Source: a phage. From it: a stretch of 6,085 nt of DNA. The DNA lies in the sequence record PX907427.1; one strand, given 5' to 3'. Shown here one piece after another: positions 2,957 through 6,085 of the stretch. Within the stretch, counting starts at the first letter, position 1. Every line of letters starts with the position of its first letter. The position numbers and the translations under genes were made by a program. Below the pieces are notes generated by a model. It was not told the DNA's origin. It searched no databases and saw only the letters and a list, made by a program, of their open reading frames with translations.

Positions 2957-3031
2957 ATGAAAAAATCTCGTCGTTCTCCATCTCGTCGCAAAGGTGCCCG
3001 CCTTTGGTATGTAGGCGGTTCTCAGTTTTAA
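2957..3031 (+). CDS. J: DNA-binding protein J, 24 aa: MKKSRRSPSRRKGARLWYVGGSQF
   Basis: Not in the ORF track. ATG 2957 follows the D stop (TGATATG); highly basic; C-terminus ARLWYVGG.QF matches phiX174 J (GARLWYVGGQQF, recollection). The 24-aa length fits alpha3-like rather than phiX174 (38 aa). Confidence 0.9.
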   Translation: MKKSRRSPSRRKGARLWYVGGSQF

Positions 3032-3033
3032 TC

Positions 3034-3057
3034 ATGGGCCTTCGGGCCCTTTAAGGA
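3034..3057 (+). terminator. J-F intergenic hairpin module (GGGCC-TTCG-GGCCC) followed by TTT and the F SD; candidate weak terminator or mRNA-stabilising stem-loop
   Basis: Perfect 5-bp GC stem (3036-3040 with 3045-3049) around a TTCG loop; the 24-nt module atgggccttcgggccctttaagga is repeated exactly at 4364-4387. Confidence 0.5.
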
Positions 3058-3064
3058 AAATTAA

Positions 3065-4360
3065 ATGTCTAATGTGCAAACCTCCGCAGAACGTGAAATT
3101 GTCGATCTCTCCCATCTTGCTTTTGACTGTGGCATGATTGGTCGTTTGAAAACCGTTTCTTGGACCCCTGTTATTGCTGGTGACTCTTTTGAGATGGATG
3201 CCGTTGGTGTACTTCGTCTTTCTCCGCTTCGTCGCGGTCTGGCGATTGACTCTAAGGTTGATTTCTTCACCTTCTATATTCCGCATCGTCACGTTTATGG
3301 TGACCAGTGGATTCAGTTTATGCGTGATGGTATTGATGCAAGTCCTCTGCCTTCTGTTACTTGTAGCCGTTACCCTGACCATGCTGGTTATGTAGGTACT
3401 ATTGTTCCTACGAATAGCCGTATTCCGAAGTTCTTACATCAGAGCTATCTGAATATTTACAATAACTATTTCCGTGCTCCGTGGATGCCTGAGCGCACTG
3501 AGCAGAACCCTTCCAATCTTAATGAGGATGATGCTCGTTATGGCTTCCGTTGCTGCCATCTTAAAAACATTTGGTCTGCCCCTCTGCCTCCAGAGACTAA
3601 ACTGGTTGAGCAAATGGGTATTAAAAGCAATTCCATTGATATTATGGGCCTACAAGCCGCTTATGCGCAGCTTCACACTGAGCAAGAGCGTACTTACTTT
3701 ATGCAGCGTTACCGTGATGTTATCTCCAGCTTTGGCGGTTCAACCTCTTATGATGCCGATAACCGACCGTTGCTTGTTATGCACACCGACTTCTGGGCTT
3801 CCGGTTACGACGTTGATGGTACTGACCAATCTTCCCTTGGACAGTTCTCTGGTCGAGTCCAGCAGACGTTTAAACACTCAGTGCCGCGATTCTTCGTGCC
3901 TGAGCATGGTGTCATGATGACTTTGGCTCTGATTCGCTTCCCGCCTATCAGTCCGTTGGAGCACCATTATCTTGTTGGTAAGTCTCAGTTAACCTATACC
4001 GACCTTGCTGGCGACCCGGCCCTGATTGGTAACTTGCCTCCTCGCGAGATTAGTTATCATGACCTGTTCCGTGATGGTCGTTCTGGCATTAAGATTAAAG
4101 TTGCTGAGTCTATTTGGTATCGTACTCATCCTGACTACGTTAACTTTAAGTATTATGATTTGCAGGGATTCCCATTCCTTGATGATGCGCCTGGTACGTC
4201 TACTGGTGATAATCTTCAGGAGGCTATTCTTGTTCGTCATCAGGACTATGATGCTTGTTTCCAGTCTCAGCAGTTGTCACAGTGGAATAAACAGGCTCGC
4301 TATAACGTTAGTGTTTATCGCCATATGCCTACTGTTCGCGATTCCATTATGACCTCTTAA
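3065..4360 (+). CDS. F: Major capsid protein F, 431 aa
   Basis: Strong match to phiX174 F from memory ([28 protein letters not shown]...FTFY.PHRHVYG). AAGGA (3053-3057) lies 7 nt upstream of ATG 3065. Confidence 0.97.
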
Positions 4361-4363
4361 TTT

Positions 4364-4387
4364 ATGGGCCTTCGGGCCCTTTAAGGA
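4364..4387 (+). terminator. F-G intergenic hairpin module, second exact copy of the 24-nt GGGCC-TTCG-GGCCC element
   Basis: Stem 4366-4370 pairs with 4375-4379, loop TTCG; identical to 3034-3057; followed by the G SD AAGGA (4383-4387) and ATG 4395. Confidence 0.5.
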
Positions 4388-4394
4388 TTTATCT

Positions 4395-4958
4395 ATGTAT
4401 CAGAATTTTGTTACTAAGCACGATACCGCTATTCAGACCTCTCGCTTCTCTGTTACTGGCAATATCACTCCTGTTGCCCCTACTGGTAATATTCCTATTA
4501 TCAATGGTGGTAGCATTACCGCTGAGCATGCTGTTGTTAGTCTTTACGCTAATATGAATGTTGGTACCTCTTCTGATGGTTCTTTCATTGTTGCTATGAA
4601 GGTTGATACCTCTCCGGCTGACCCTAACTGCGTTATCTCTGCTGGTGTTAACCTTAGTTTTGCTGGCACTTCGTACCCGATTGTTGGTATTGTTCGTTTT
4701 GAGTCTGCTTCTGAGCAGCCCACATCTATTGCTGGTAGTCAGATTGAACATTACCCGATTGAAATGTCTGTTGGTTCCGGTGGTGTTTGTTCTGCTCGTG
4801 ATTGTGCTACTGTTGATATTCATCCTCGCACTTTCGGCAATAATGTTTTTGTTGGTGTGATTTGTTCTAGTGCTAAATGGACCTCCGGTCGTGTGCTTGG
4901 TACTATCGCGACTACTCAGGTTATTCATGAATACCAAGTTCTTCAGCCGCTTAAATAA
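4395..4958 (+). CDS. G: Major spike protein G, 187 aa
   Basis: Position after F and conserved blocks versus phiX174 G from memory (VRFES, PRT.GNNV.VG, C-terminal LQPLK). Confidence 0.95.
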
Positions 4959-5041
4959 AAGGCCGCCGCACTCCCGGTTATATGCCTGCCCAGTGTAGGG
5001 CGGACCGAGCCGTACGGAGATACCCGATAAACTAGGAACGT

Positions 5042-5068
5042 GGAAGGCGTTAGCCGCCTTCCCTCCTG
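5042..5068 (+). other. Candidate complementary (-) strand origin element: perfect 8-bp hairpin followed by CTG, of the primase-dependent G4 type
   Basis: ggaaggcg (5042-5049) pairs with cgccttcc (5055-5062), loop ttagc; CTG at 5066-5068 lies 3 nt 3' of the stem. Sits in the only sizeable non-coding spacer apart from H-A (G-H, 4959-5092). Confidence 0.35.
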
Positions 5069-5092
5069 CTAAGCCCAAAAGGAGTTACAGCG

Positions 5093-6085
5093 ATGTTAGG
5101 TGCTGTTGTTGGTGGTATTGCCTCAGCCTTAGCTGGTGGTGCCGCTTCAAAATTATTCGGAGGCTCTCAGCGTGGAGTTTCTGTTATGCAGCAAGGTGCC
5201 GAGTCTGCCGGATTGACTAACGGTGGCGGTGCCATTTCTATGGATAATGACCAAGGTATTCAGTCTGCTATTCAAGGCTCGAATGTTCCTCCTGCTGGTC
5301 AGCTTCCTGAGTCTCAGAATTCTGGTGTTATGGCTGATGCTGGTAATATGCTTCGCAATGCTGGAAAGTCCTTGCTTGACGGAACTATTCAGGCTGGCTC
5401 TGATAAAGTTAAACAAGCCCTTATTGATAAGTTGATTGGAGGTAATGATGCCAAAGATCGAGGAAAAGCCACCCGTGATTACTTGGCTGCGGCCTTCCCT
5501 GAGCTCAACCCATGGGAACGTGCTGGAGCTGGTGCTTCCACTGCCGGGTTAGAGTCCTCTGCTCAGAATCAGCAGAAAGAGATGTTGAAGATGCAATTGG
5601 ATAATCAGAAAGATATTGCAAAAATGCAGATGGATAATAATTTGCAGATTGCTGGTATTCAGTCTGCCACCTCTCGTCAAAATACAAAGGATTCTGTTTA
5701 TGCCCAGAATGAGATGCTTCAGTATAATCAACGTGAGTCGCAGGCACGCGTTGCGTCTATCCTCGCCAACACTGACCTTACGACTAAACAAGCCACCCAT
5801 GAAATTATGAGGATGGCCCTTACCCGCGCTCAGGAGACTGGTCAGCATTTGACTAACTCTCAGATTATGGCTTTGGAGAAAAAGGTTTATGCAGAAATTG
5901 GCAAAATTCATCAAGATACTCAAAATTCTCGCTATGGTAGCTCTCAAGTTACTGCCGCAGCGAAAGACGTTACGAATATGATTACTGATGCCTCTTCAGG
6001 CCTTGCTGATTGGGCTTCTCAGCAGTGGAATTCGTTCTTTAAGGATGGCAAGTCCAACGGTATTTCTTTTAATACTAGAAAATAA
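5093..6085 (+). CDS. H: Minor spike / DNA pilot protein H, 330 aa
   Basis: N-terminal glycine-rich hydrophobic segment GGIASALAGGA.SKLFGG and central block KDTRDYLAAAFPELN.WERAGA...IAGIQSATSRQNTKD.VYAQNEML match phiX174 H from memory. AAGGAG (5079-5084) lies 8 nt upstream of ATG 5093. Stop TAA is the last 3 nt of the window. Confidence 0.95.
   Translation: MLGAVVGGIASALAGGAASKLFGGSQRGVSVMQQGAESAGLTNGGGAISMDNDQGIQSAIQGSNVPPAGQLPESQNSGVMADAGNMLRNAGKSLLDGTIQAGSDKVKQALIDKLIGGNDAKDRGKATRDYLAAAFPELNPWERAGAGASTAGLESSAQNQQKEMLKMQLDNQKDIAKMQMDNNLQIAGIQSATSRQNTKDSVYAQNEMLQYNQRESQARVASILANTDLTTKQATHEIMRMALTRAQETGQHLTNSQIMALEKKVYAEIGKIHQDTQNSRYGSSQVTAAAKDVTNMITDASSGLADWASQQWNSFFKDGKSNGISFNTRK

Follow-up and report, generated by a model that had tools for sequence, protein, structure and literature searches.

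The window analysed here, a stretch of DNA of 6085 nt, is a complete alpha3-like microvirus genome that aligned over its whole length with coliphage alpha3 (95% identity), and with St-1, phiK, Lilleven and the WA13/ID/NC group at 83–92% alignment identity. These relatives, alpha3 among them, belong to the genus Alphatrevirus (Microviridae, Bullavirinae). Synteny with the alpha3 annotation and the list of open reading frames gave the gene order A (759–2243), B, K, C, D (2503–2955), E, J (2957–3031), F (3065–4360), G (4395–4958) and H (5093–6085), all on the + strand, which is the mRNA sense and also the packaged genome. Since the alpha3 annotation places J, F and G at these coordinates, the labels J-F and F-G given to two of the junctions in the first-pass annotation of this DNA were correct. 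The H-A spacer (positions 1–758) is an unusually long non-coding stretch, 758 nt compared with 63 nt in phiX174; it contains an open reading frame of 136 aa (24–434), and for Lilleven hypothetical proteins have been annotated in the corresponding stretch.

Sigma-70-like promoter sites, both of them consensus matches only, were found just before A (697–726; TTGACA, 18 nt, TATATT; 11/12 consensus positions) and, by promoter scan on the + strand, before D (2445–2473; TTGACG, 17 nt, TATCTT). They correspond in position to phiX174 P_A and P_D. On the same strand, 26 nt past the H stop codon, a hairpin at 26–65 with a 13-bp interrupted stem is followed by six T; it was detected by the terminator scan (35–58) and by folding (−16.6 kcal/mol, z = −4.35), and its sequence makes it a likely canonical intrinsic terminator and analogue of phiX174 T_H. 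With these signals in place, the rest of the window's transcription plan looks like that of phiX174: the P_D-like promoter would feed transcripts through both of the hairpins described below, and that transcription unit would end at the T_H-like terminator. An inverted repeat of 29 nt (72% complementary), the longest in the window, joins 995–1023 in gene A (CAACTTGATAATAGTAACACTA) to a stretch of gene G at 4487–4515. The gene A arm is similar to the sequence conserved at the viral-strand origin in microviruses, and the pairing between the two arms is probably a chance one.

The J-F and F-G spacers share an exact 24-mer, ATGGGCCTTCGGGCCCTTTAAGGA (atgggccttcgggccctttaagga), found on the + strand at 3034–3057 and again at 4364–4387. 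Each copy consists of a hairpin, three U residues and a Shine-Dalgarno sequence. In the first copy, the stem lies 4 nt beyond the J stop codon (TAA, 3029–3031) and pairs GGGCC (3036–3040) with GGCCC (3045–3049) around a UUCG loop (3041–3044), so that the hairpin occupies 3036–3049; the U tract (UUU, 3050–3052) is followed by AAGGA (3053–3057), the Shine-Dalgarno sequence of F, with 7 nt between it and the start codon at 3065. In the second copy, 5 nt separate the F stop codon (TAA, 4358–4360) from the stem (4366–4370 and 4375–4379, loop UUCG at 4371–4374, hairpin 4366–4379), and AAGGA (4383–4387) precedes the G start codon at 4395 by 7 nt. The first-pass annotation had described an exact duplication of a hairpin module at the two gene junctions, with an all-GC stem of 5 bp closing a UUCG tetraloop through a C-G pair and running straight into the F ribosome-binding site. 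The sequence and a pattern search bear this description out in both copies, AAGGA beginning 3 nt past the stem in each.

The likeness of the two spacers exceeds the 24 nt, extending over 31 nt at 90% from stop codon to Shine-Dalgarno sequence. A pattern search of the window returned no third site for the 24-mer with three or fewer mismatches, and none was expected from 200 shuffles. A stretch at 3642–3663 (TTATGGGCCTACAAGCCGCTTA) is 73–77% similar to the module; it forms no hairpin, lies within the F coding sequence and was set aside as a chance match. Folded as RNA in ViennaRNA, the 24-mer adopts this hairpin alone, at −10.8 kcal/mol and with 96% of the ensemble. Both copies have the sequence of the hyperstable tetraloop class, a UUCG loop closed by C-G, in the transcribed sense; all annotated genes lie on the + strand, and the complement would carry a CGAA loop. 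Dinucleotide-shuffle z-scores for the fold were weak (−1.3 to −2.3) and uninformative, because a shuffled short GC palindrome still yields GC pairs, and we therefore relied on covariation and on simulation at the level of the motif. In first-order Markov simulations of 6-kb genomes, C(TTCG)G hairpins with at least five Watson-Crick pairs were expected 0.010 times per genome on both strands together, and two or more occurred in none of 20,000 simulations; the window has two, which lie in intergenic DNA on the coding strand. A search of the whole window against Rfam (cmscan, E ≤ 10) gave four chance-level matches, none of them near 3034–3057 or 4364–4387, and the GenBank records of alpha3 annotate no stem-loop or terminator feature.

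In order to follow the element among relatives, both junctions were taken from 19 alpha3-like genomes (15 GenBank records, 3 IMG/VR contigs and 1 metagenome contig). In none of the 19 did either junction lack a C(TTCG)G hairpin, and TAAGGA, invariant in every alpha3-like relative examined, stood 1–4 nt after each. All alpha3-like genomes share one geometry, consisting of stop codon, 4–7 nt, stem, 1–4 nt, TAAGGA, 6–9 nt and ATG. Segments of 22 nt spanning the hairpins are identical to those of public genomes of the alpha3 clade, for example at F-G of alpha3 (DQ085810) and at J-F of NC28. The UUCG loop and its closing C-G pair are invariant in 38 of 38 junctions, while the stems vary. The window shares GGGCC/GGCCC with phiK, NC28 and others, the crown of the WA13-like clade has GGGGC/GCCCC and the IMG/VR relative UViG036090 has GGGCCC/GGGCCC; the J-F stems of alpha3, St-1 and Lilleven are GGGCCC/GGGCCT (with an outer G-U pair), GAGCCC/GGGCTC and GGCC/GGCC, respectively, and the F-G stems of St-1, phiK and Lilleven are ATGGGCC/GGCCCAT. 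Most of the differences between genomes are two-armed and preserve pairing, and the changes in stem length in UViG036090, St-1 and Lilleven are symmetric. J-F stems of 4 bp occur in two genomes only, Lilleven and NC29, the latter having lost one G from one arm.

Covariation was scored in a loop-anchored set of 21 distinct sequences that includes the J-F hairpins of phiX174, FL76, PJNS002, SECphi17 and G4. Counted from the loop outward, the first pair is C-G in all 21; the second is C-G in 11, G-C in nine and A-U in one; the third is G-C in 18 and C-G in three; the fourth is G-C in all 21; and the fifth is G-C in 17, A-U in one and G-U in one, with two sequences unpaired. No sequence of the set breaks the middle pair or either of the two pairs adjoining the loop, and two-sided changes are seen in five of seven pairs. 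None of 500 shuffles reached the observed covariation score or percentage paired, and shifting the partner by one column lowered pairing from 84% to 65%. RNAalifold, applied to each junction separately with 24 nt of upstream sequence, returned exactly the 5-bp helix and nothing else; in this set the second pair at F-G is C-G in seven sequences and G-C in three. Placed on the F-gene tree, the G-C/C-G swap, the change from G-C to A-U and the symmetric insertion and deletion of one pair represent several independent events that preserve the structure. Comparing the J-F and F-G junctions across related phages for compensatory changes in the stem, the check that the first-pass annotation had proposed, therefore gives a positive answer: the core pairs are kept through exchanges among C-G, G-C and A-U. 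We conclude that the pairing of the hairpin is under selection.

Two observations on the records concern the comparison set. The 1992 alpha3 sequence (NC_001330 / X60322, 4372–4385) is one C short in the 3′ arm at F-G (GGGCC/GGCC-T), and the resequenced genome (DQ085810, 4373–4387) has GGGCC/GGCCC; the missing C in the old record is probably a gel compression error in a GC hairpin. A metagenome scan with the F protein added a single alpha3-like locus (L025), the other 66 of 67 loci being phiX174-like or fragments. Loci L026–L090 include dozens of phiX174-like genomes in tandem, ∼5.4 kb apart, as in contig FUFK010037421.1 (327,964 nt), an array that looks like an assembly artefact of a sequencing spike-in and that dominated the results of the metagenome scan.

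On the coding strand, the hairpin of the first copy separates the J stop codon from the ribosome-binding site of F, and a hairpin is found in the same place in phiX174, FL76, PJNS002, SECphi17 and G4. In phiX174, the spacer reads TAA-TTGC-AGGGGC-TTCG-GCCCCT-TACTTGAGGA...ATG (also given as TACTTGAGGATAAATT-ATG), within which AGGGGCTTCGGCCCCT is the T_J hairpin. Like T_J, the window's element has a short GC-rich stem with kept pairing and a UUCG loop closed by C-G, and hairpin 1 is, in position and in sequence, the homologue of T_J. The UUCG loop with C-G closure is also seen at J-F in the G4-like genomes FL76, PJNS002 and SECphi17. Exceptions to the loop all fall outside the alpha3 clade: G4 itself has a 7-bp hairpin with CGCG instead of UUCG, L101 has UACG and L108 a loop of 5 nt. 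Judged from this distribution, the J-F hairpin is an old feature common to Bullavirinae; the module is an orthologue of a textbook regulatory hairpin and a known kind of element.

The second copy has a different distribution. It is absent from the F-G spacers of phiX174, G4, FL76, PJNS002 and SECphi17, and by sequence comparison it is specific to the alpha3 clade. The alpha3-like F-G spacer is a near-copy of the J-F cassette, 34–37 nt long, and the phiX174-like and G4-like F-G spacers are ∼100–136 nt and hold other hairpins. That of phiX174 (T_F, 110 nt) carries different hairpins, with GAAG loops, and a primosome site, unlike the alpha3-like copy; that of G4 (136 nt) carries a primase origin, whereas the alpha3-like origin cassette sits at G-H instead. 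Nearly every base of the window's G-H spacer (4959–5092, 134 nt) can be aligned with the origin region at F-G of G4, where an RNA-primer site and the complementary-strand origin are annotated, and the primase-type origin cassette of the alpha3 clade therefore lies between G and H rather than between F and G. With the origin homologue located there, the 24-nt module could be ruled out as a complementary-strand origin of the G4 type. Considering that the short F-G spacer is a near-copy of J-F and that G-H is origin-like, the spacer cassettes of the clade have been rearranged: the origin-bearing spacer has moved from F-G to G-H, and one T_J-type cassette is deployed twice.

The two copies may have become alike by duplication or conversion, or by convergence on a short constrained design, and three features hint at exchange. 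The same stem variant is present in both copies in 14 of 19 genomes (GGGCC in five genomes of clade A and in NC28, GGGGC in eight of clade B). A swap from G-C to C-G requires an intermediate with a G-G or C-C mismatch, and nevertheless it has occurred at least twice at each junction. In NC28 (∼3054–3085), the sequence on both sides of J-F is WA13-like (clade B), and a spacer of ∼35 nt with stem GGGCC, TTTAAGGAAATCCA, is alpha3/phiK-like (clade A); moreover, both NC28 and MG945254 (position 1707) have GGGCC at F-G inside clade-B flanks. This pattern suggests either that short patches were exchanged or that compensatory swaps between G-C and C-G happened repeatedly. For NC28, breakpoints at the hairpins from recombination of whole genes were rejected, as only the short spacer patch differs and the flanking genes do not. 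Concerted evolution of the copies is possible and, with 19 related genomes, inseparable from shared ancestry; we see only a slim chance that the two cassettes flanking F are kept alike by intragenomic conversion or by short-patch recombination between co-infecting phages. Were such exchange to occur, the cassettes would also serve as movable junctions at which spacers or the F module could be swapped, a small-scale counterpart of the promoter-stem-loop cassettes that have been proposed to shuffle genes of T4-type phages.

What the hairpins might do can be approached through phiX174. Four rho-independent terminators have been described in that phage, T_J in the J-F spacer, T_F in F-G, T_G in G-H and T_H in H-A (Logel & Jaschke 2020, bioRxiv 10.1101/2020.03.05.979765); T_J, T_F and T_G each block 20–40% of transcription and T_H ∼70% (bioRxiv 10.1101/2020.03.05.979765). 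Read-through at T_J was 68% at 37°C (Zhao et al., PMC3335065). Transcripts ending at T_J are the most stable of phiX174, and disruption of T_J leads to faster decay (Hayashi, Hayashi & Muller 1983, as cited in PMC3335065); by the same citation, stabilisation by the J-F hairpin was reported for both phiX174 and G4. Chemostat-evolved phiX174 repeatedly fixes C987T, an extra T in the tail just after T_J (PMC3606162), and in viable phiX174 variants generated by a language model Terminator J is unmutated. For alpha3-like phages (alpha3, St-1, phiK), no transcript mapping was found in the searchable literature.

Compared to an intrinsic terminator, the window's element has half of the expected signature. 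Its five G-C pairs provide the GC-rich hairpin of at least 5 bp; the tail directly after the stem, UUUAAGGA, contains three U, and not the five or more in 8 nt of a terminator U tract. A consensus terminator scan of the window reported neither hairpin, though it did report the T_H-like site at 35–58. Given this silence and the three-U tract, we did not file the hairpins as canonical intrinsic terminators and liken them only to the weak T_J of phiX174; as read from the sequence, termination at them would be weak at best.

The position and sequence shared with T_J, together with the published effects of T_J, support a reading in terms of termination and stabilisation. We consider it likely, by analogy with phiX174, that the module is an intercistronic weak attenuator and 3′-exonuclease barrier on late mRNA, grading transcripts in the order D/J > F > G. 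The late polycistronic mRNA D-E-J-F-G-H, read from the + strand, would carry both elements, and a C(UUCG)G hairpin would form just past the J stop codon and again just past that of F. At each hairpin with its three U, a minority of RNA polymerases would halt and the remainder continue, as at a leaky rho-independent site; transcripts ending there, through termination or through 3′-to-5′ trimming, would be shielded from PNPase and RNase II. Acting in series, the two elements would step the mRNA down from D/J to F to G ahead of the strong canonical terminator expected after H, and AAGGA, three nt past the stem, would serve as the next gene's ribosome-binding site, making a compact stop-hairpin-start cassette. 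Partial termination, mRNA stabilisation and graded expression are effects known from phiX174 that the present phage would share. Of the roles that the first-pass annotation offered for a reused structured RNA element, weak terminator and stabiliser of mRNA 3′ ends are supported by the covariation and by the published effects of T_J, and an endonuclease processing site finds no support; an RNase III site in particular was ruled out on established knowledge, a stem of 5 bp being far too short.

It is conceivable that polymerase does not terminate here at all and that the hairpin is purely an exonuclease barrier or processing end-point, 3′-to-5′ digestion down to it stabilising D-E-J (and F) differentially. 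In favour of this, the U tract is very short and the site falls outside the terminator consensus, stabilisation is the documented effect of the J-F hairpin in phiX174 and G4 (as cited in PMC3335065), and drops in RNA-seq read depth cannot tell termination from differential decay. However, the phiX174 literature calls T_J rho-independent with reference to rho-deficient cells (Hayashi, Hayashi & Imai 1981, listed in PMC3335065), and the adaptive lengthening of the T tail after T_J (PMC3606162) is easier to read as an effect on termination. We therefore regard a barrier acting on its own as unlikely and keep weak attenuation as part of the preferred reading.

The position of the hairpin also brings translation into consideration, since a ribosome on the stop codon 4–5 nt upstream must melt the stem and since the arrangement of stop codon, stem, TAAGGA and ATG is fixed in all alpha3-like genomes. 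The hairpin might keep the F and G Shine-Dalgarno sequences single-stranded, or couple or uncouple initiation on F and G to termination on J and F. Folds of single sequences permit a weak outer helix between YUUAA in the stop-codon context and UUAAGG at the Shine-Dalgarno sequence; it gains only 0.2–0.7 kcal/mol in these minimum-free-energy folds and was rejected as a conserved feature, since RNAalifold does not recover it at either junction and its consensus holds no conserved helix beyond the 5-bp hairpin and none sequestering the Shine-Dalgarno sequence. Moreover, insulation alone requires no invariant UUCG. A translational element is a doubtful substitute for attenuation combined with protection of 3′ ends, a reading with which such a role could coexist.

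Finally, folding predicts the same hairpin for the + strand as packaged DNA, at about −6 kcal/mol, and covariation of the pairs alone therefore cannot separate a role in RNA from one in DNA. UNCG loops gain their extra stability in RNA and not in DNA. Among close structural equivalents, the only other tetraloop variant is UACG in the G4-like L101 (5538 nt), which belongs to the UNCG class, as does UUCG. The invariant UUCG with its C-G closure thus points to selection at the level of RNA, although it does not amount to proof. A role in the single-stranded genome, whether it marks a site for packaging or condensation, signals replication or provides a short homology cassette for exchange of the F module between co-infecting phages, would draw on the predicted DNA hairpin, on the modules being direct repeats that flank F and on the ∼35-nt clade-A-like J-F spacer in the clade-B surroundings of NC28, which indicates that spacers are exchanged as short patches, but we hold it to be very improbable, as the complementary-strand origin is elsewhere (G-H, 4959–5092), no reason is known for a UNCG loop to be invariant in DNA, the element has no known binding protein and divergence between the clades shows no sharp change at the hairpins.

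Taken as a weak attenuator and 3′-end barrier, the module implies that the alpha3 clade presumably keeps serial hairpin attenuators in the style of phiX174, tuning the mRNA doses of the capsid proteins. Should the weak-terminator reading be wrong for this clade, that would bear on capsid protein stoichiometry in microviruses; nothing here suggests that it is. The hairpin offers a clean, small case of compensatory evolution in a viral RNA and, for synthetic biology, a part that combines stop codon, hyperstable hairpin and ribosome-binding site within 34 nt. Beyond annotation, its importance is little.

Several known systems share one or another property with the element. Tuerk and colleagues, in 1988, reportedly described C(UUCG)G hairpins in intercistronic regions of phage T4 and in rRNA; these are alike in the UUCG loop, the C-G closure, the short GC stem and the intercistronic position in mRNA, but they represent a structural motif class and no homologous family, with no sequence relationship beyond the loop. 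REP elements are intercistronic stable hairpins that block 3′ exonucleases and set differential segment stability in polycistronic operons; the module resembles them as an intercistronic stable hairpin with a proposed exonuclease block and differential segment stability, whereas REP elements are longer, imperfect palindromes of host origin without homology to it. With canonical terminators, of which the T_H-like hairpin at 26–65 is the likely local example, the element has in common a GC-rich hairpin on nascent RNA followed by U residues, and it differs in having three U compared with six and a stem of 5 bp compared with 13 bp. T_F of phiX174 occupies the same junction as the second copy and presumably does the same job of attenuation between F and G. 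T_J, described as a leaky site of rho-independent termination that also stabilises mRNA (Hayashi et al. 1981–1989; Logel & Jaschke 2020), is alike in its place at the J-F junction between the J stop codon and the F Shine-Dalgarno sequence, in the same gene order, and in its C(UUCG)G loop, its GC stem of 5–6 bp (AGGGGC/GCCCCT as against GGGCC/GGCCC in the window) and its poor U tract. It differs from the window hairpin in the second pair of the stem, which is swapped (C-G against G-C), in the Shine-Dalgarno sequence, which is GAGGA 8 nt past the stem in phiX174 and AAGGA 3 nt past it in the window, and in its tail, which in phiX174, unlike the window, resembles an A-protein cleavage site (PMC3606162).
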